Part shown: piece by piece, positions 4,721-50,045 of the stretch | Numbering within the stretch: the stretch's first letter is position 1 | Layout: each line of letters begins with the position of its first letter | Sequence record: LC739537.1 | Length of the DNA stretch: 64,000 bases | Direction: 5' to 3' (one strand) | Source of the DNA: Escherichia phage phiWec188 | Notes under the pieces: generated by a model | The model's database searches: none | Told to the model about the DNA's origin: nothing | Seen by the model: the letters and a program-made list of their open reading frames with translations, nothing else | Made by a program: the position numbers and the translations under genes

Positions 4721-5158
4721 ATGTTGAACGTTCCTGTTAAATTCGTCGATAGCTGTGTTAATGCTTACCAACAAACTTGTAAACGTGCCTCAAACTGTTT
4801 GCAGTCTTTGATTCAAACGCGGTACGTGATCCAAAAGAAAAGAAAGTGGTTTGGTAAGGATTCTTATAGTGTTAATGCGTTCGGGGAGTATCAACTCCAG
4901 TATGACGATAACATGCAACACATCTTAGAGTTTTTACTGATAAAAGATAAAATCTCCCCTGCGGATTACCAGTTACTTAAATTCTACGATCAGAGTTTGT
5001 CTATTGAGGAAGTTATTCAAGATATCCTTTCTCGTAAGACAGATAAGAACACTGTTGGTATTACAAACTTAGAGATGCAATTGCTCAATGAGATCTTTTT
5101 GTTTGTGGAAGATGAGTCTGTAACTAAGGAGGAGCTTTTAAATGGCTTTAAGCTATGA
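4721..5158 (+). CDS. hypothetical protein
   Basis: 145 aa ORF; gaggag RBS upstream. Confidence 0.5.
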   Translation: MLNVPVKFVDSCVNAYQQTCKRASNCLQSLIQTRYVIQKKRKWFGKDSYSVNAFGEYQLQYDDNMQHILEFLLIKDKISPADYQLLKFYDQSLSIEEVIQDILSRKTDKNTVGITNLEMQLLNEIFLFVEDESVTKEELLNGFKL

Positions 5159-5650
5159 TCGTCCAGAGTCCGATTACTATCCGACTCCGCAAAAAGCGAT
5201 TAACTCGTTATTTAGCATTATTGATTTTAAAAATTTGAAAGAGGAAGGATTTACATTTGCAGAACCGTGTAGAGGACAAGCAGCGGCTATTTACCGTCAC
5301 TTTCCTGAAGGTTCTCAGTATTGTGAGCTTGAAGAAGGTAAAGATTATTTTAGTCACGTATGGGAAAATCGTCCCGACATTATAATCACGAATCCTCCAT
5401 TCAAGCTGGCATTAGAGTTCTTGGAAAAGAGCTTGAAAGAAGCAGACGTGTCAGTCTACCTGCTTCGCCTGGGATTCCTTGAGTCAAAGAAACGTCGAGC
5501 GTTTCATCAAGAAAACCCCCTACGAATTTGATTGTACTCTCCGAACGTCCTTCGTTCGTAGCAGGTGGAACAGATAAGACAGCGTATGCTTGGTACGTAT
5601 ACGATCCAAAACAAATTTTGGGTCTAACTCAACCATTTTATTTCGTTTAA
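5142..5650 (+). CDS. putative DNA N6-adenine methyltransferase, interrupted by an apparent -1 frameshift near 5512-5520
   Basis: YYPTP and IIITNPPF motifs; ORF stops at 5531 but the -1 frame continues (LIVLSERPSFVAGGTDKTAYAWYVYD) to stop at 5650; shift falls in an A4C5 run. Confidence 0.4.
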
Positions 5651-6953: not shown

Positions 6954-7283
6954 ATGGAAATTACTACAGAACAGGCTCTTATCGACGAAGGGCGTAAAAT
7001 CTTAGAGAAGCATTTGGGAGATATACATCAAACCCCTGGCTACTTAGGGTGGCGCATGGTTGAAGCTGTAGATTTCCTTCCTCGCACCAAACAAGACGTT
7101 GAAATGCGTTCTCTGTTTTTGCTTGTTAAGGTAGACGGAGATACGCCTTTCAAGCTGGCAGCTTCACACATTGAGAAGGTGGAGGAGAAAGCTTATTCAG
7201 AGTTTGCCGAACTCGTATTACAGGAGGATCTCGAAGGGAAGGTAAACATTTTTATTTTTCTGGATTTTGAGGAGGAGATATGA
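6954..7283 (+). CDS. hypothetical protein
   Basis: 109 aa ORF; gaggagg RBS upstream. Confidence 0.5.
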   Translation: MEITTEQALIDEGRKILEKHLGDIHQTPGYLGWRMVEAVDFLPRTKQDVEMRSLFLLVKVDGDTPFKLAASHIEKVEEKAYSEFAELVLQEDLEGKVNIFIFLDFEEEI

Positions 7284-8017
7284 TTTTATATAAAGAGATT
7301 ACCGTGGAGCAGGATCAAGACCTCTTCATTATCGGGGACTTGCATGGTTGCTACGATCTTTACTTGAAAGGTAAGAATTATCTTGGTATCCGAGATACAG
7401 ATGTGGTTGTGTCTCTCGGAGATTTGACAGATCGTGGTAAACAAAACTTCAAATGTGTTGTAGAGTTTTGTCGCAAAGAGAATCGTTATGCTCTCTGTGG
7501 TAATCACGAAGATATGATGATTAAAGGCTTACTGGAAGGGGATCGTCGTTACTACGAATGTTGGTATCAGAATGGTGGTCATACGGTATTGGCAGAATGT
7601 GATGAAGAAGGATCTACTCTGCTCGCTACGATGGTTGAGGACAACCCTGTGATTTTGGTTGTGAACTATCGAGGTATGAAGTTAGGGTTTATTCATGGTG
7701 GATATCCTTCCTCTTTTGAATATCTTCCCCTGACAGACATACCACACCTACGTATGAGCAAAGCAAAAGAAGCTACTTTCGCTGAAGCTTTGATGTGGGA
7801 TCGTGATATGGTGGAGTGTGCCAAAGAAGGCATGAAACTTCCGGTTGTTATGGGTGTTGATTATGTGTTTCACGGGCACTCTTATGTGAAAGAACCTTTG
7901 ATCAATGCTAATCGTGTTTATATGGATACTGGGTCTGTTTTCAATAACAACTTAACGTTTGCCTATTTTGATGCAGACGGTGGACTTCAGTTTTATTCAA
8001 CTTTACAGGAGGATTAA
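7280..8017 (+). CDS. Ser/Thr protein phosphatase (lambda-PPase-like metallophosphoesterase)
   Basis: GDLHG, GDLTDRG, GNHE motifs in canonical order; 245 aa. Confidence 0.85.
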   Translation: MILYKEITVEQDQDLFIIGDLHGCYDLYLKGKNYLGIRDTDVVVSLGDLTDRGKQNFKCVVEFCRKENRYALCGNHEDMMIKGLLEGDRRYYECWYQNGGHTVLAECDEEGSTLLATMVEDNPVILVVNYRGMKLGFIHGGYPSSFEYLPLTDIPHLRMSKAKEATFAEALMWDRDMVECAKEGMKLPVVMGVDYVFHGHSYVKEPLINANRVYMDTGSVFNNNLTFAYFDADGGLQFYSTLQED

Positions 8018-8318: not shown

Positions 8319-8897
8319 ATGAGCAACCTATTTTACACAGGTGTGGGAAGTCGAGAGATAACCCACGAAGAATGGGATTTAATGGTCGCTGTAGCAAAGT
8401 GGTTGGCTAACTGTGGTTTTACTTTACGTTCAGGTAATGCAAACGGTAGTGACTCTGCTTTCGAAACTGGTGTAGAAGAATCTAAAAACAAAACTCTCAA
8501 GGAGATTTATATCCCTTGGGAGAAGTTTGAAGGTAATGATATCCCAGGTGAGAAAATAGTGCTTGCTAATCCTGACAGTATGAACTATGCTATCAGTCTC
8601 CAGTGGATAAAGGAAATCCATCCAGCATTTGATAAACTTAAACAAGGTGCACGTAAATTGCATCAACGTAACGTTCATCAGGTGTTGGGACAAGACCTGG
8701 AGCATCCTGTGCCTTCCTTATTCTTATTGGCATGTTCCAAAGAGGATAAGAAGGGAGATGTTATGGGTGGAACACGGACGGCGTGGCTCATCGCTAAAGC
8801 TAATAACGTTCCATGTTTTAACTTACGTGGTAAAACAAAGGAAGAACTTTATGCTTTTCTTAAACCGTTGGTCAAGGGGGCAATCAGTGGCAATTAA
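8319..8897 (+). CDS. Rossmann-like SLOG/DprA-type protein (putative)
   Basis: ORF 8307..8897; YTGVGSR and SGNANGSDSAFETG motifs resemble the DprA/SLOG fold; start ATG 8319. Confidence 0.4.
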   Translation: MSNLFYTGVGSREITHEEWDLMVAVAKWLANCGFTLRSGNANGSDSAFETGVEESKNKTLKEIYIPWEKFEGNDIPGEKIVLANPDSMNYAISLQWIKEIHPAFDKLKQGARKLHQRNVHQVLGQDLEHPVPSLFLLACSKEDKKGDVMGGTRTAWLIAKANNVPCFNLRGKTKEELYAFLKPLVKGAISGN

Positions 8898-10480: not shown

Positions 10481-11425
10481 ATGAAAGTATTAATCGGTAG
10501 TCGTGCGTTGGAAATGATTTGTCGTTCTCGTGGTGTAGAACTGTATCGTGCTTGCGTAGATCTGGATTACCTCTGCACTGAAGAAGAGTGGCAAGCAGAA
10601 GCCCAGAAATTCTCGAAAGATCGTTTCGTGGAAATTGTTGAACGTAAAGGTAACAAAGGGCATATCAAAATGATCGCGGGTGCTCATCTGGAATACGATA
10701 TTGCTCAACCAGGGGATTCTACAGAAGCATTGATCGAATATATTAAAGAGAATGCAGATCATCTGCCACATATTGGTTACGATGTGGTTGCACCTTTGGA
10801 TGTTTTGTATCTCCTGAAAATGAGTCACCGTTTTAAGAAGGACAGTCCTCACTTCCTGAAAACAATGAAGGATATCCACTTCATGCGCAACCTTGGAGCG
10901 AAGATCCCTGAAGAGTTGGAAGATACATACAAACTGCGTCAGAAGGAGTCCTATAATTACGGGCACCCTAATCTGAACGTGAAAAGTAAAGATTTCTTCA
11001 AGGGTGATGAAGTGCCTTATGTGTATGATCACGATACCATCCATGAAGCTGTTGCCGTGTTGGGTGATCCCGCTTATAAATCATACATGAAAGACGATAG
11101 CGAAGTGATGACCAGTAAAGAGAAGTTCTTTGCACAACCTAAACATATCCGTTTGCTGGGTGTTTACGAAGAAGCTTGTGTCCTGGCATTAGAGCGTTCA
11201 CAGATCCCGTTTGGGGAAGATGTAGATGGTCCAACTCCTAAACAAAGTTTTATGATGGCTTTATCCAAAGTTTGTACCTCGATCACCAGTGGATGGTTTC
11301 GTGAATATGCCTGGGAAAACTTCCAAGTTGTGGTAAAACTGTATGAGCAAATGGGCCAAGATGATTACGTGGCACGTTTTAAAGCAAATCTTCACATGGT
11401 GAAACCTTACGAAGGAGGTTATTGA
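10481..11425 (+). CDS. hypothetical protein
   Basis: ORF 10421..11425; ATG 10481 preceded by agaggagg; about 314 aa. Confidence 0.55.
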   Translation: MKVLIGSRALEMICRSRGVELYRACVDLDYLCTEEEWQAEAQKFSKDRFVEIVERKGNKGHIKMIAGAHLEYDIAQPGDSTEALIEYIKENADHLPHIGYDVVAPLDVLYLLKMSHRFKKDSPHFLKTMKDIHFMRNLGAKIPEELEDTYKLRQKESYNYGHPNLNVKSKDFFKGDEVPYVYDHDTIHEAVAVLGDPAYKSYMKDDSEVMTSKEKFFAQPKHIRLLGVYEEACVLALERSQIPFGEDVDGPTPKQSFMMALSKVCTSITSGWFREYAWENFQVVVKLYEQMGQDDYVARFKANLHMVKPYEGGY

Positions 11426-11426
11426 T

Positions 11427-11825
11427 ATGGGTTGGTGTGATCAGTCCCAAAGTTACTTCAAAGTAACACATGTGGATCTCAATAAAGCAAGAGTGAAGTT
11501 GTTGAGTATTGAAAAAGAAACAGCAGCTATTGACAAACGCCTCCGAGAGAGTAAAGTGGTAATCACTTCTTGGTTCGGACTGAAACGTAAAATCCTTACG
11601 CAGCGAGAGCATGTAATTAAAAATATGCATGGTTGGGCTTGGTTCCACGACATGGCAAAACACCTGGGGTACATTTCTACTGAAGAACACGACCTCTTGG
11701 AGCTACGTTATCGCCTTCCAGATGTAGAAGATTTAGACTTGTGGATCAGTTCCGAACAAATCTTCTTAACCGAGGGCGATTGGAAGAAAGTCAATATTTG
11801 TCTTAAATGGAGGGAGAATGAGTAA
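11427..11825 (+). CDS. hypothetical protein
   Basis: 132 aa ORF; gaaggagg RBS upstream. Confidence 0.5.
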   Translation: MGWCDQSQSYFKVTHVDLNKARVKLLSIEKETAAIDKRLRESKVVITSWFGLKRKILTQREHVIKNMHGWAWFHDMAKHLGYISTEEHDLLELRYRLPDVEDLDLWISSEQIFLTEGDWKKVNICLKWRENE

Positions 11826-12501
11826 AGTAGTTTTATCAACATTTGATGGATCTGGGATCATGGTACTTCGTTACGCAGAAGCAGGGCATAAATGCTACTG
11901 TGTAAATGCTGACGAAGGTGATCACGGGGCTTATGAAGTTCGCATGAAACATCCTAACATCACTTACGTGAACGCATGGATTGATTCCAACTTCAACCCT
12001 GAAGATTACGGTATTCCTAAGCCAGATATTATCTTTGGCTTCCCTCCATGTACCATGCTTGCTGGTTGCGGTAGTAAGCACGAACGTAGCGCAGAAGAAT
12101 TGGAAGAAGCTTTGGCTAACATTCGTATCGTGGAAGCTTTAGGAAATAAATACAACGTTCCGTGGATGATTGAGAATCCAGTGGGTAAACTGTCAACATT
12201 GTGGCGTAAACCGGATTTCTATTTCGATCCTTACGAATATGGCGGGTATCTGTTTGATGAAGAAGGCAGCTTCCACCCTAAAATGCCTACCCGCGACGGT
12301 TACACAAAGAAAACCTGTATTTGGCATGGCAATGGTTTTGTTAAGCCTGTGAAGAAGCCTGTGGAACATATTGGTTGCTTCTGGGGCTGGAAAAGTTTAG
12401 GCGGAGCAAGTGCGAAAACAAAACAACTCCGATCGTTAACTGCTCGCGGTTTTGCTCGTGCTGTGTTTTTATCTAACAACCTTTTAGATAAGGAGGAATG
12501 A
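11818..12501 (+). CDS. putative DNA (cytosine-5) methyltransferase-like protein, short
   Basis: Motif I-like FDGSG, motif IV-like GFPPCT (PC dipeptide), motif VI-like ENPVGKL; 227 aa, short for a complete C5-MTase. Confidence 0.4.
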   Translation: MSKVVLSTFDGSGIMVLRYAEAGHKCYCVNADEGDHGAYEVRMKHPNITYVNAWIDSNFNPEDYGIPKPDIIFGFPPCTMLAGCGSKHERSAEELEEALANIRIVEALGNKYNVPWMIENPVGKLSTLWRKPDFYFDPYEYGGYLFDEEGSFHPKMPTRDGYTKKTCIWHGNGFVKPVKKPVEHIGCFWGWKSLGGASAKTKQLRSLTARGFARAVFLSNNLLDKEE

Positions 12502-13166
12502 TGACCCATTTAAAACCTTTTGGTGGAAAACCTATTGTGGCGTATCAAGTAGATCGTGATGATTGGGAAGGCAGTGTAGTTGTCTTTGGTAATCATTTCT
12601 TTGCTGTGCGTCGTAAAGGCGCAAGTATGTTGGATTGTGAGGAGGAGTATTGTCATGTCTCCCGCGCCAAAGAATTCGACCAGTATGCAGAAAAAGGTTT
12701 TGTGCCTGTCAAAGCTTTACTGGAGGCAGGATGGTGGATACACTCTGCTCATGATGGTGTTAGACTTGACGAGTCTGTAGATAATCTTGAGGCAGATTTT
12801 GACGAATGGGAAGATGGCATGTATATTGAGGAGGATCTTGTATTTTCCCTTGACGAGAAAAGTGTGTGGAAGAACTGGGAAGAAATGGAACGTCACGCGC
12901 ATTTTATCAACAACGCTTTGATTCGTAAAGCCTGGTTCACAGAGGCGGTGAAGGTAGCGTATCCGCAATTCACCTTTACGGAGGTTTGGGGCGGTCCACA
13001 CCACATCACCCATACAGCATTTTTCGACTTCCCTGGTTCACGTTACAAAGGTAATGTAATGTGGGACTGGGATGAGAATGAAGTACCATCTGTTCAAGAC
13101 TTTCGTTGTTATGTTTGCCAAGGCGATCAAGAAGCCCTTGACAAATACCTGCAAAGTCTGGTATAG
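12498..13166 (+). CDS. hypothetical protein
   Basis: 222 aa ORF; ATGA overlap with upstream gene. Confidence 0.5.
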   Translation: MMTHLKPFGGKPIVAYQVDRDDWEGSVVVFGNHFFAVRRKGASMLDCEEEYCHVSRAKEFDQYAEKGFVPVKALLEAGWWIHSAHDGVRLDESVDNLEADFDEWEDGMYIEEDLVFSLDEKSVWKNWEEMERHAHFINNALIRKAWFTEAVKVAYPQFTFTEVWGGPHHITHTAFFDFPGSRYKGNVMWDWDENEVPSVQDFRCYVCQGDQEALDKYLQSLV

Positions 13167-13179
13167 TGCAAGCAACTGA

Positions 13180-13212
13180 ACAAAGCCTCCTTTTCAGGGG
13201 GCTTTTCTTTTA
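13180..13212 (+). terminator. intrinsic terminator
   Basis: agcctccTTTTCAgggggctt hairpin followed by ttcttttat. Confidence 0.55.
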
Positions 13213-13224
13213 TGAGGAGGGAAT

Positions 13225-13719
13225 ATGTTTCAAGTAGAAATCCATGTGCACAACAGTTGTTCAAATTGCGAAACTTGTGGTTACAATAGTTCAACCATGA
13301 TCACTATTAGCGGAGACTTAGGACATGCCAAGTTTGGCGAAGTCGCAAGCTGCTTCAGCGGAGAGGATGCAGATTGGCATGATATTGCTTTGTGGCTATG
13401 CGGAAGACTGAATGTAAATTGTAAAGACTTCCCTGAACTGTTGAGCCGAAATCTTGTCGATAGTCGGGAACAAGCCTACAATATTTATGCCGCTTCTGTT
13501 TATGTTGATCATAAATGGGTAGAAGATGAAGAAGCTGAACGTTTGCTACGCCTCTACTATGAAGCAGAGGAAGCTTATGATAACTATTACAGCATGTCCA
13601 ACATCCTGCGTTTGTTTGCAGAGTTTGATATTTACTTTGAAGTGAGTTATTCTGAAGATGAAGTGTATGATTTTGATGACGATGATTACGAGGAGGATGA
13701 AGAATGCCAAGACGATTAA
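13225..13719 (+). CDS. hypothetical protein with Cys-rich N-terminus and acidic C-terminus
   Basis: 164 aa; gaggagg RBS; CSNCETCG motif; C-terminus DFDDDDYEEDEECQDD. Confidence 0.5.
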   Translation: MFQVEIHVHNSCSNCETCGYNSSTMITISGDLGHAKFGEVASCFSGEDADWHDIALWLCGRLNVNCKDFPELLSRNLVDSREQAYNIYAASVYVDHKWVEDEEAERLLRLYYEAEEAYDNYYSMSNILRLFAEFDIYFEVSYSEDEVYDFDDDDYEEDEECQDD

Positions 13720-14507
13720 TAGTGATCAGCGGCGCTGGTCTAAGCGCCGATAGCGGTGTACAAACATTCCGTACAGAAACAGAGAGTGGAAAAGCATTAT
13801 GGGACGAGTACGATTTAGAGGAGGTTTGTAATATTGGGGCATTCCAGGCAGGTTATCGTAGACGTACATGTCCCGATTTACCTGTTATCGGAGGTGAGGA
13901 TGAGGAAGGATACAACCTCTACAACAAGACCCATGATTTCTATAACAAGCGTCGTATAGAGTTGGATAATATAGATCCAAACGCTGCACATCGTCTGATT
14001 GCTCGTTTATACTCAGAGTATGGCGCTGATCGTATTTTAAACATTACCACTAACGTAGACGATCTTTTGGAACGTGCTGGTGTTGTTCACGAAGATGTTC
14101 TGCATGTGCATGGCTACCTACCAGAAATTGTAGTGGATCGGAAGTTTATTAAAGAAATCGGTTATGCAAGTGTGGATGTGGATAAGTACGATTACGTGAA
14201 ACCTAACGTTGTCTTCTTCGGGGAATCTGCTCCGCTGTACACAGAGATGTACCATATGCTCGATAATCTCACATCTCAGGATATGGTGATTGTTGTAGGT
14301 TGCTCTAATCAAGTGATCAACTTCAACTGGGAGTTGTTCCCAGCCCTCAATACAGGAACAAAGATGGTCGTAGTTAATCCTGGGGTTAATTACGAAGAAA
14401 CACTTCTCTATGAAGATCGTGGAGTTTTTGTTTACCGAGAAAAAGCTGCAACAGCCTTCAGTAATGAAGGTTTCATTAAAATGATCGAAGACCACTTAAA
14501 CAAATAA
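13704..14507 (+). CDS. Sir2-family NAD-dependent protein deacylase/ADP-ribosyltransferase homolog
   Basis: Sirtuin motifs GAGLSADSGVQTFR, catalytic HG (VLHVHGY), VVFFGE; 267 aa. Confidence 0.8.
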   Translation: MPRRLIVISGAGLSADSGVQTFRTETESGKALWDEYDLEEVCNIGAFQAGYRRRTCPDLPVIGGEDEEGYNLYNKTHDFYNKRRIELDNIDPNAAHRLIARLYSEYGADRILNITTNVDDLLERAGVVHEDVLHVHGYLPEIVVDRKFIKEIGYASVDVDKYDYVKPNVVFFGESAPLYTEMYHMLDNLTSQDMVIVVGCSNQVINFNWELFPALNTGTKMVVVNPGVNYEETLLYEDRGVFVYREKAATAFSNEGFIKMIEDHLNK

Positions 14508-14512
14508 ACCAA

Positions 14513-14540
14513 CCAAGGGGCTACGGCCCCTTTCTTATTA
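14513..14540 (+). terminator. intrinsic terminator
   Basis: aaggggcTACggcccctt hairpin followed by tcttatt. Confidence 0.65.
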
Positions 14541-14550
14541 GGAGATTACT

Positions 14551-14823
14551 ATGCAACAAGAAACTTTCGATTTTTATCTCGCCAATTATGTCTACTACTT
14601 CTCTAATGGTACACAGAAAGGGGAAGGCAATCTTTACTTGGCTACCAACACTGGAGCAGGTGTTCGTAAAGCCAATATTGATTTAGCAAGAGAAACAGTT
14701 CGTTCTGGACTGGAAGAGACGCTTGAAACTCCAGTTGTTGTGGTTATACAAACTATCAGTTACCTTGCAACCTGTACTAAAGAGGATTTTGAGGCTCCTC
14801 AAACGCAATCTAACGAAGCATAA
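14551..14823 (+). CDS. hypothetical protein
   Basis: 90 aa ORF; aggag RBS upstream. Confidence 0.5.
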   Translation: MQQETFDFYLANYVYYFSNGTQKGEGNLYLATNTGAGVRKANIDLARETVRSGLEETLETPVVVVIQTISYLATCTKEDFEAPQTQSNEA

Positions 14824-14858
14824 AAGAAAGGCACCCACTTGGGTGCCTTTTCTATTTG
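14824..14858. terminator. bidirectional intrinsic terminator at convergent strand switch
   Basis: aaaggcacccACTTgggtgcctttt: hairpin with A-run on one side and T-run on the other; plus genes end and minus genes begin here. Confidence 0.7.
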
Positions 14859-14892
14859 AGAGCGTCTCTGTGCGATTTAAGGGGGTTCTCGG

Positions 14893-15123
14893 CTATTTGT
14901 GAAGTGCTCTCTCGTACAACTCGATAATCAACTCGTCTTCGGCAGTAATACGGGCCATTTGATCTGTCTTCAGGATTGCTGGTTGGTAATGATGCATTTC
15001 ACTGCTCAAGATACACTCCCACTCATCTTCCCCTACTCTCTCACCTACGTGAATCTTCACAGGATACCAGAAAGGATTGTCCACCAGGAATGCCATACAA
15101 CCTTCTTCGATTTTGCTCAACAT
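14893..15123 (-). CDS. hypothetical protein
   Basis: 76 aa ORF; gaggag-type RBS on minus strand. Confidence 0.5.
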   Translation of the reverse strand: MLSKIEEGCMAFLVDNPFWYPVKIHVGERVGEDEWECILSSEMHHYQPAILKTDQMARITAEDELIIELYERALHK

Positions 15124-15144
15124 AGTAATCTCCTTTGTTCAGAT

Positions 15145-15170
15145 ATGAAAAAACCCGCCGAAGCGGGTTC
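15145..15170 (-). terminator. intrinsic terminator (minus strand)
   Basis: Minus strand reads aacccgcTTCGgcgggtttttt. Confidence 0.65.
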
Positions 15171-15213
15171 ATGTGCTGCGGTAGGATCAGTATCCTACAA
15201 CAAGAATTGTTTG

Positions 15214-41463: not shown

Positions 41464-41649
41464 TTATTTGACTATGTGACGATCATTATATTCAGTGTAA
41501 AACTCGCAACCATCGTCACGACTATCAAGTTTAACAATGTAACCAGTTTGATAACGTTCAATAGATACCATTGCATAAAACTTACCATTCAGGATATTTC
41601 TAACCAGATCGCCTTTTACCAATTCTTTCGTTTTCTTGTAAGTAGTCAT
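41464..41649 (-). CDS. hypothetical protein
   Basis: ORF 41464..41700; ATG 41649 downstream of hairpin. Confidence 0.5.
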   Translation of the reverse strand: MTTYKKTKELVKGDLVRNILNGKFYAMVSIERYQTGYIVKLDSRDDGCEFYTEYNDRHIVK

Positions 41650-41669
41650 GATGTTTTCTCTTCTGTTAG

Positions 41670-41726
41670 GCGGGGCGCTTGTCGCCCCTATGTGATACAT
41701 CTTATCAGGTTGATTCAGCTTGTCAA
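41670..41726 (-). promoter_or_regulatory. promoter plus 5' hairpin cassette (stem variant ggggcg/cgcccc)
   Basis: TTGACA, spacer, TGATAAGAT, then ggggcgACAAGcgcccc hairpin. Confidence 0.5.
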
Positions 41727-49517: not shown

Positions 49518-50045
49518 TTATGGTATTTTGGCTGGGAACAGGATTTTAATCAGATTGTTGTGGTATTGTCCTAAAAGATTCTGCCCTTTCCAGTTGGCAG
49601 GATTAAGCACCCCTGGTTCATACATACCCATTCCAATTCCGTAAACCTTATCGTAAGGGCTGGCCTCAACGAATGTTTTGAATTGATACAGGCGCAAGTC
49701 AGAGTAAAGATCAGGGTTCTGTGTATACTTCAAGCATAAGCCTCGCATTACGATACGCTCTCGGTGCTCTTCCCACACGTCATTATTAAAACCAGACACC
49801 GCTCGACCCATACGTTTGTAGTACGCCTGTCCCTTCTCGTCGTCACGCTTCATTGAGTGATAAAGGATAGCTGCTGCGATTACCTGATCCTTGAACAGCA
49901 AAGCCTTACGCCACATCATGTATTGCTCTACACAACAGAAAGTGTCACTGTACCCTGGTTCCGTCTCTGTAAATGGCGCAATGTACCAATTGCTAAACAC
50001 ATCTTTATGTGAAAAGAAGAATACATATTCATCAGTTATTCGCAT
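49518..50045 (-). CDS. NADAR-domain protein (YbiA/DUF1768-like)
   Basis: 175 aa; FSNW, VEQYMMWRKA, NLLGQY segments parallel the conserved NADAR blocks of E. coli YbiA. Confidence 0.6.
   Translation of the reverse strand: MRITDEYVFFFSHKDVFSNWYIAPFTETEPGYSDTFCCVEQYMMWRKALLFKDQVIAAAILYHSMKRDDEKGQAYYKRMGRAVSGFNNDVWEEHRERIVMRGLCLKYTQNPDLYSDLRLYQFKTFVEASPYDKVYGIGMGMYEPGVLNPANWKGQNLLGQYHNNLIKILFPAKIP

Follow-up and report, generated by a model that had tools for sequence, protein, structure and literature searches.

Sirtuin genes have reportedly been known in phages for about twenty years, beginning with the genome papers on KVP40 and T5. A phage Sir2/CobB family was described in 2016 from KVP40, T5, SPC35, GAP32 and other phages, with missing zinc ligands already reported for the members from KVP40, phiSt2 and phiGrn1 (PMC5107563), and a survey published in 2022 assigned most viral sirtuins to one distinct clade (PMC9503650). 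Our full-text search of the literature turned up no study of any phage sirtuin, whether biochemical, structural or genetic. T5 and several phage-therapy candidates are among the phages that carry the gene, and the function of the family is a long-recognised question. Here we describe the member encoded by a 64,000-nt stretch of Escherichia phage phiWec188 (LC739537.1), hereafter referred to as the window.

Occurrence and organization of the sirtuin gene

The 2.2 kb around the gene (positions 13000-15200 of the window) are 100% identical to Escherichia phage phiWec190 (LC739539.1), a Phapecoctavirus of the Stephanstirmvirinae in which the corresponding copy is annotated 'cobB, NAD-dependent protein deacylase' (BDU13633.1). 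The whole window matches the phiWec190 record at 99.95-100% identity with a few indels. Using tblastn, we found homologues in 980 of 50,697 phage records (about 2%), with identities of 70-100% in Phapecoctavirus and Justusliebigvirus, 50-60% in T5-like Demerecviridae and Vequintavirinae, 37-40% in KVP40-like Vibrio phages and 30-39% in jumbo phages, and most of these homologues carry the annotation Sir2-like or NAD-dependent deacetylase. Already annotated publicly and belonging to a catalogued family, the gene is not novel, and the window provides one more copy of it rather than a new object. The closest cellular relatives share about 40% identity and a zinc-less TTNVD signature (see below), and are chromosomal across the genus Marinobacterium, where their neighbours are genes for a TonB receptor and an oxidoreductase. 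This metabolic setting is an ordinary one, of the kind that a housekeeping deacylase would be expected to have. Since representative genomes from 185,579 species of bacteria and archaea yielded no relative of at least 50% identity, the close clade is restricted to phages. Comparison with three homologues gave dN/dS values of 0.11-0.14, and the sirtuin gene is therefore under purifying selection. The gene and its flanking signals are arranged as follows.

13138..13167, + strand: sigma-70-like promoter match (11/12, extended -10 TG; consensus match only)
13225..13719, + strand: upstream gene of 164 aa (PHROG 9509), acidic at its C-terminus and sharing 16 nt with the start of the sirtuin gene
13690..13696, + strand: ribosome-binding site GAGGAGG, 7 nt before the sirtuin ATG, read directly from the sequence
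13704..14507, + strand: sirtuin coding sequence, ATG start, 267 aa plus stop
14515..14532, + strand: terminator-like GC-rich hairpin followed by a T-rich tail (consensus match only)

The Shine-Dalgarno sequence of the sirtuin gene lies within the 3' end of the upstream gene, the promoter match precedes both genes, and the hairpin starts 8 nt past the sirtuin stop codon. By its signals, the sirtuin gene is thus apparently the second gene of a two-gene unit that runs from the promoter match through the 164-aa gene and the sirtuin gene to the hairpin. Searches of Pfam and the PDB with the 164-aa product returned zero matches, and the gene occurs in 130 phage records, only in Stephanstirmvirinae, where it adjoins sir2. 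Because it has no match in either database and is restricted to this subfamily, the upstream gene is uninformative on function and was dropped as a clue to the role of the sirtuin. Farther upstream lie genes for a PHROG 8514 protein, a small methyltransferase-like protein (PHROG 757) and a DUF7275/DUF7277 protein with no sequence match in the PDB, and the region also holds a DprA-like protein and a phosphatase gene. The latter (7280-8017, + strand) had been pointed out, along with a NADAR gene (49518-50045, - strand), as sitting in the same genome segment as the sirtuin. Both are real, the former coding for a calcineurin-like metallophosphoesterase or NinI-like Ser/Thr phosphatase and the latter matching PF08719 (E=4.6e-34), but they lie about 6 and 35 kb away, respectively, and neither has a conserved linkage to the sirtuin gene. 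The window contains no tRNA genes; the tRNA cluster of the phage is located outside it.

Family assignment, active site and small domain

The sequence-only reading had assigned the 267-aa ORF to the Sir2 family on the basis of a sirtuin signature (GAGLSADSGVQTFR), a catalytic HG and a VVFFGE block, and had proposed an HMM search, a careful alignment of the catalytic His and a check for the zinc-binding Cys tetrad. All of the motifs are present, and profile, sequence and fold tests agree on membership in the Sir2 family. The HMM search matched Pfam PF02146 (SIR2) with E=7.1e-21 and 75.4 bits against a gathering cutoff of 24, and the protein is a full-length match (residues 2-267, E=7e-100) to PHROG 2162, 'Sir2 (NAD-dependent deacetylase)'. 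The best sequence match in the PDB was E. coli CobB (1s5p, E=1.6e-17), followed by Sir2Af2, Sir2Af1 and SIRT5. An AlphaFold2 model of the protein reached a pLDDT of 90.7 and a pTM of 0.88, with low confidence only in the cofactor-binding loop (residues 21-40). Foldseek comparison of this model with the PDB again ranked CobB 1s5p first (E=4.5e-16, TM 0.84 on the target), followed by Sir2Af1, Sir2Af2 and SIRT5; out of 283 matches at E<=0.001, the best 50 were all sirtuins, in keeping with the two-domain sirtuin fold. These results support the view that the protein is a phage-encoded enzyme of the Sir2 superfamily whose predicted catalytic site is intact. The best NCBIfam models were all CobB-type deacylases, and seven of the seven CobB models (NF001753, NF040867 and related) scored under their curated cutoffs (best, 101.4 bits against 243). 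Orthology to CobB was rejected on these grounds; the protein is therefore CobB-like rather than a CobB orthologue, and the deposited name cobB overstates the relationship.

We aligned the protein to CobB of E. coli MG1655 and scored conservation in 55 homologues of 53-94% identity, which revealed the following elements.

13731..13772, + strand: Rossmann NAD+-binding loop, residues 10-23, aligned to CobB G48-R61
13827..13829, + strand: Cys42, invariant in the phage clade, aligned to CobB Ala76
13941..13952, + strand: class-III Y-x-x-R motif, residues 80-83 (Y-N-K-R), aligned to CobB Y92/R95
14046..14060, + strand: TTNVD, residues 115-119, counterpart of the canonical TQNID nicotinamide-ribose pocket
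14109..14114, + strand: catalytic His136-Gly137, invariant
14115..14201, + strand: small domain in place of the zinc ribbon, residues 138-166, with no cysteine
14208..14225, + strand: FGE loop VVFFGE, residues 169-174, lining the acyl-lysine tunnel, aligned to CobB V187-E192
14298..14330, + strand: GCSNQVINFNW, residues 199-209, clade-specific form of the GTSxxVYP loop

The catalytic His is conserved, with H136 corresponding to CobB H147. Within the NAD+-binding loop, G10, A11, G12, S17, F22 and R23 are invariant in the 55 homologues, as are Y80 and R83 of the class-III motif and F171, F172 and E174 of the FGE loop, whose FFGE aligns to CobB W189-E192. The TTNVD element retains N117 and D119 (CobB N130 and D132), the Gln being replaced by an invariant Thr116. 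Further positions that are invariant in the same alignment are W33, V41, F47, R84, P92, N93, H96, N113, V118, G137, K166, P167, G199, S201, V204, F207 and N225. The GTSxxVYP loop of sirtuins binds the NAD phosphate and the substrate peptide; in the phage protein, Ile-Asn stands where this loop has Tyr-Pro. Cys42 occupies an acyl-pocket position, that of CobB A76, which is changed in engineered acyl-selectivity variants of CobB (PDB entry titles).

The check for the zinc-binding cysteines came out negative. The protein contains three cysteines in all (C42, C56 and C200), each of them outside residues 138-166, and as no cysteine lies between HG and FGE the zinc tetrad is absent. The zinc module is normally required for sirtuin stability. 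In the AlphaFold2 model, the zinc-less small domain folds as three beta-strands (residues 137-144, 148-151 and 165-169) with a pLDDT of about 95. We also surveyed 1.84 billion cluster representatives, which yielded 2,169 proteins at E<=1e-3, and inspected the best 140 of these 2,169. The zinc cysteines were missing from 50 of the 140, 35 of which have Thr at position 116, and were kept in the other 90, of which 76 have Gln at that position; Cys42 was kept in 117 of the 140.

Candidate activities of the phage sirtuin

We put at about an even chance that the protein is a zinc-independent, CobB-like enzyme, a putative NAD+-dependent protein-lysine deacylase that would act during infection. This explanation is the best supported because the residues that deacylation requires are all invariant (G10, A11, G12, S17, F22, R23, N117, D119 and H136, together with F172, E174, Y80 and R83) and because the closest relatives are bona fide deacylases. 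Each of these residues aligns with its CobB counterpart, and the top sequence and structural neighbours are all class-III protein deacylases. The two-gene unit, with a putative promoter of its own, would probably allow the sirtuin to be co-expressed with its small acidic partner gene during infection. NAD+ would bind in the Rossmann cleft and an acyl-lysine on a protein of the host or the phage would enter the tunnel made by the FGE loop, whereupon the acyl oxygen would attack C1' of the nicotinamide ribose and nicotinamide would be released. His136 would activate the 2'-OH, and the reaction would yield O-acyl-ADP-ribose together with the deacylated lysine. The outcome would be a remodelled acylation state of the target proteins. 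The retained Y80-x-x-R83 motif suggests that acidic acyl groups (succinyl, malonyl) may be accepted besides acetyl, and Cys42 together with the GCSNQVINFNW loop suggests that the substrate range may differ from that of host CobB. If the targets prove to be host proteins, this enzyme would provide one of the few documented examples of a phage that reshapes the acyl-proteome of its bacterial host.

Several observations count against protein deacylation. As the zinc module is missing and both the Gln of TQNID and the Tyr-Pro are replaced, the substrate may be something other than an acyl-peptide. Sirtuins are also reported, in the abstract of PMC4271551, as evolutionarily conserved viral restriction factors, which makes a phage-borne copy puzzling. 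Finally, in Vequintavirinae the sirtuin gene is surrounded by genes for RNA ligase, kinase and phosphoesterase. From gene neighbourhoods of this sort, Iyer, Burroughs, Anantharaman and Aravind proposed in 2022 a role similar to that of KptA/Tpt1 in RNA-end repair (PMC9503650, section 3.7.3). The enzyme would transfer ADP-ribose from NAD+ onto the 2'-phosphate left where an RNA (tRNA) has been broken or ligated, and the phosphate would leave as ADP-ribose 1''-2'' cyclic phosphate, thereby countering host anticodon nucleases. Inspection of reported lineages bore out this linkage. The Vequintavirus RudolfGeigy has the order RNA ligase, 116-aa ORF and sirtuin, with a divergent polynucleotide kinase and a phosphoesterase, beside a tRNA cluster. 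In the Mydovirus KpS8, the order is phosphoesterase, RNA ligase, hypothetical ORF, kinase-like ATPase, hypothetical ORF, Sir2, DNA ligase and MazG, with NAMPT and PRPP synthetase genes 5 kb from the sirtuin. We found an RNA-repair arrangement in about 13 loci of an IMG/VR sample of 59 sirtuin loci with 10-kb flanks, and the invariant Y80/R83 pair could in principle hold a phosphate rather than a carboxylate.

We nonetheless consider this role unlikely. As every linked locus comes from a single subfamily, the gene order may simply be inherited. In about 32 loci of the T5 type and about 10 of the Stephanstirmvirinae type, none of these genes lies within 10 kb of the sirtuin. The rV5-type and KpS8-type RNA ligase, polynucleotide kinase, 116-aa ORF, phosphoesterase, MazG, NAMPT and PRPP synthetase were used as tblastn queries. 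The RNA ligase, kinase, NAMPT and PRPP synthetase had no homologue in the window or in the whole phiWec190 genome (E<0.01 for the ligase and the kinase). Counterparts of the 116-aa ORF, phosphoesterase, MazG and DNA ligase do occur in phiWec190, clustered outside the window at a distance of 29-32 kb from sir2. Likewise, no RNA ligase, kinase, cREC, or 2H or HAD phosphoesterase adjoins the sirtuin gene within the window. RNA-repair linkage was consequently rejected for the present genome: such linkage occurs only in one phage subfamily and in the jumbo phages that PMC9503650 describes, and is absent here. The Marinobacterium homologues are also devoid of RNA-repair neighbours. The phage protein is strongly acidic (pI 4.79, net charge of about -17; family median pI 4.95), which makes it unlike a typical RNA-binding enzyme and argues against a role in RNA repair; short CobB is also acidic (pI 5.42). 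Our full-text literature search found no experiment on the KptA-like role. The modest value of the genome is that of one negative case to set against the RNA-repair hypothesis, in that it retains the sirtuin but has no detectable RNA ligase or kinase homologue.

Less probable still, in our judgement, is that the clade defined by the zinc-less small domain, Thr in place of Gln and Cys42 comprises NAD+-dependent ADP-ribosyl transferases acting on a non-protein acceptor instead of protein deacylases. The acceptor could be the 2'-phosphate on cleaved tRNA or RNA, as Iyer et al. predicted, or a modification that the host imposes on nucleic acid or protein of the phage, and the sirtuin would then be a counter-defence enzyme of an uncharacterised kind. 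If this were true, the persistence of the gene in Phapecoctavirus and T5-like phages without a nearby RNA ligase would point to a target other than a ligation junction, and activity on RNA or on a defence-imposed modification would be new chemistry for sirtuins.

Transfer of a single ADP-ribose to host proteins, for instance transcription or translation factors, by analogy with Alt, ModA and ModB of T4 or with SirTM, would be compatible with the intact NAD site, and the altered peptide-binding loop would leave room for a non-canonical acceptor. Some sirtuins are indeed ADP-ribosyltransferases (reviewed in PMC9503650). We regard this activity as decidedly improbable for the phage protein, as its nearest relatives are all deacylases and the full deacylase pocket is conserved, H136 and the Y-x-x-R motif included. 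Moreover, no macro-domain partner is adjacent to the sirtuin: no Macro match was found in the ten flanking proteins, and the upstream neighbour proteins contain no macro domain, RNA ligase, kinase or NAD-salvage domain. SirTM, the macro-domain-linked ADP-ribosylating sirtuin, was accordingly rejected as the group to which the protein belongs, since it has no macro-domain operon partner.

The sequence-only reading had also likened the protein to the Sir2 effectors of NAD-depleting defence, a comparison for which we found no support. Sir2 domains of ThsA, DSR and Sir2-HerA are NADases, and in several other phage lineages the sirtuin lies 2-8 kb from NAMPT/NMNAT salvage genes, an NAD-centred context; however, such salvage genes fit nicotinamide recycling from any sirtuin reaction equally well, and their proximity therefore does not discriminate between the possible activities. 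That the protein is an NAD+ glycohydrolase or manipulates the NAD pool, e.g. to exclude superinfecting phages or to shut off the host by depleting NAD+, is highly improbable, given that PADLOC returned noise-level matches only (best E=0.0022 over 35 residues), on which a defence-type Sir2 was rejected, that no defence Sir2 is among the best 50 of the 283 Foldseek matches and the top neighbours are class-III protein deacylases, that phiWec190 has no NAMPT or PRPP synthetase homologue by tblastn, and that draining NAD+ would gain a lytic phage little. No fused or adjacent sensor domain (TIR/SLOG, HerA, pAgo, etc.) was found in the neighbour proteins.

Comparison with known systems

Canonical sirtuins of classes I-IV and U have a CxxC...CxxC zinc tetrad in the small domain, which the phage sirtuin lacks. 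Among them, the class-III enzyme CobB of E. coli (1s5p, 6rxj) is the best match in both sequence and fold, with 31.6% identity over 225 aligned positions. The two proteins have in common the GAGxS loop, the F/R pair, Y-x-x-R, N-x-D, the catalytic His and the FGE loop. The phage protein differs from CobB by the absence of the zinc-binding cysteines and of the basic N-terminal extension of the long CobB isoform, by the replacement of Gln129 by Thr, of Ala76 and Thr215 by Cys and of VYP by VIN, and by a 22-residue insertion (residues 52-73) in the helical module. The desuccinylase-type class-III enzymes SIRT5 and Sir2Af1 share Y-x-x-R and the overall fold with it; they bind zinc, unlike the phage protein, and their identity to it is only 21-25%.

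More distant are the defence Sir2 NADases (ThsA, DSR1/2, Sir2-HerA and SPARSA), with which the phage protein shares the Sir2 superfamily and NAD+ as the substrate. In contrast to these, it is a single-domain protein with no sensor or partner, has deacylase-type pocket residues and gives no match to their profiles. The RNA 2'-phosphotransferase KptA/Tpt1 is unrelated in fold; the only things in common are the proposed NAD+-dependent ADP-ribosyl transfer and, in some phages, an RNA-repair context (PMC9503650), a linkage not seen in the present genome.

The closest described system is the phage Sir2/CobB family itself (PHROG 2162), represented by the proteins of T5, KVP40 and rV5 and by the 'Sir2-like protein' of phAPEC8. 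The protein described here is a full-length member of this family and differs from it in nothing essential; it belongs to the Stephanstirmvirinae branch, which is 51-57% identical to the T5-like and Vequintavirinae members and has a gene neighbourhood of its own.

Gene neighbourhood of the sirtuin

Several genes precede the 267-aa zinc-less, CobB-like sirtuin gene (13704-14507, + strand):

8319-8897, + strand, DprA-like protein (PHROG 768, E=7e-63)
10481-11425, + strand, 314-aa DUF7277+DUF7275 protein (E=1.7e-76)
11818-12501, + strand, 227-aa protein matching PHROG 757, 'DNA methyltransferase'
12501-13166, PHROG 8514 gene

The PHROG 757 and PHROG 8514 genes lie together upstream of the sirtuin gene in Stephanstirmvirinae-type IMG/VR loci, including the more distant L056 and L058, while L062 carries PHROG 757 without PHROG 8514. 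By eye, the PHROG 757 protein contains FDGSG, FPPC and ENPVG motifs resembling those of C5-methyltransferases; a Pfam search with it returned no match. The N-terminus of the DUF7277+DUF7275 protein (LIGSRAL...VDLDYL) looks, by eye, like a Pol-beta-type nucleotidyltransferase motif, and a PDB sequence search with this protein returned no match. The DprA-like protein, which matches Pfam DNA_processg_A weakly (E=0.0016), could represent one of the SLOG-type nucleotide-binding domains that have been discussed in connection with phage NAD/ADP-ribose conflicts.

Two further features lie elsewhere:

340-1739, extending past the window start, + strand, phage-encoded dTDP-L-rhamnose pathway genes
49518-50045, - strand, NADAR-domain protein (PF08719, E=4.6e-34)

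The NADAR gene proposed in the sequence-only reading was borne out by this Pfam match; GenBank labels the ORF only 'hypothetical protein'. The sirtuin gene is 35 kb away, and no conserved linkage between the two was seen. The epimerase RfbC (E=5.8e-70) and the reductase RmlD (E=7.9e-74) are encoded among the rhamnose genes, and glucose-1-phosphate thymidylyltransferase and dTDP-glucose 4,6-dehydratase genes are found immediately outside the window in LC739539.1, the GenBank record of the near-identical phage phiWec190.

Differences from LC739539.1

The ORF starting at 5142 codes for 129 aa in the window compared to 169 aa in LC739539.1, because the homopolymer at 5516-5520 is C5 rather than C6; the lost C reflects either a mistake in sequencing or frameshifting by phase variation. 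Approximately 800 bp of the record (129122-129922) are absent from the window. The junction (~41645-41697) falls inside an array of very small genes and is flanked by a ~50-bp repeat, suggesting deletion between repeated intergenic sequences.

Sirtuin relatives in other phages and in bacteria

Among the matches to the sirtuin region or protein, 'Pseudomonas phage PsgM04F' shares 96.5% nucleotide identity with the coliphage sirtuin region and several 'Campylobacter phage' records contain Justusliebigvirus-like sirtuins; the host labels look doubtful. In T5-like chee24 and in 28 T5-type IMG/VR loci, the T5-type sirtuin gene is followed after ~400 bp by a 98-aa ORF:

7192-7488 of the chee24 locus (L008), labelled 'Sir2 (NAD-dependent deacetylase)' in RefSeq

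This ORF is possibly a fragment, or its PHROG may have been wrongly assigned.

Zinc-less sirtuins are also encoded on the chromosomes of Marinobacterium spp. and Haliea (loci L071-L093), and the gene is kept throughout the genus Marinobacterium. These proteins exhibit ~40% identity to the phage clade and share its EDVC(H/N) and TTNVDD signatures. The phage gene may derive from, or have passed into, such bacterial chromosomes.
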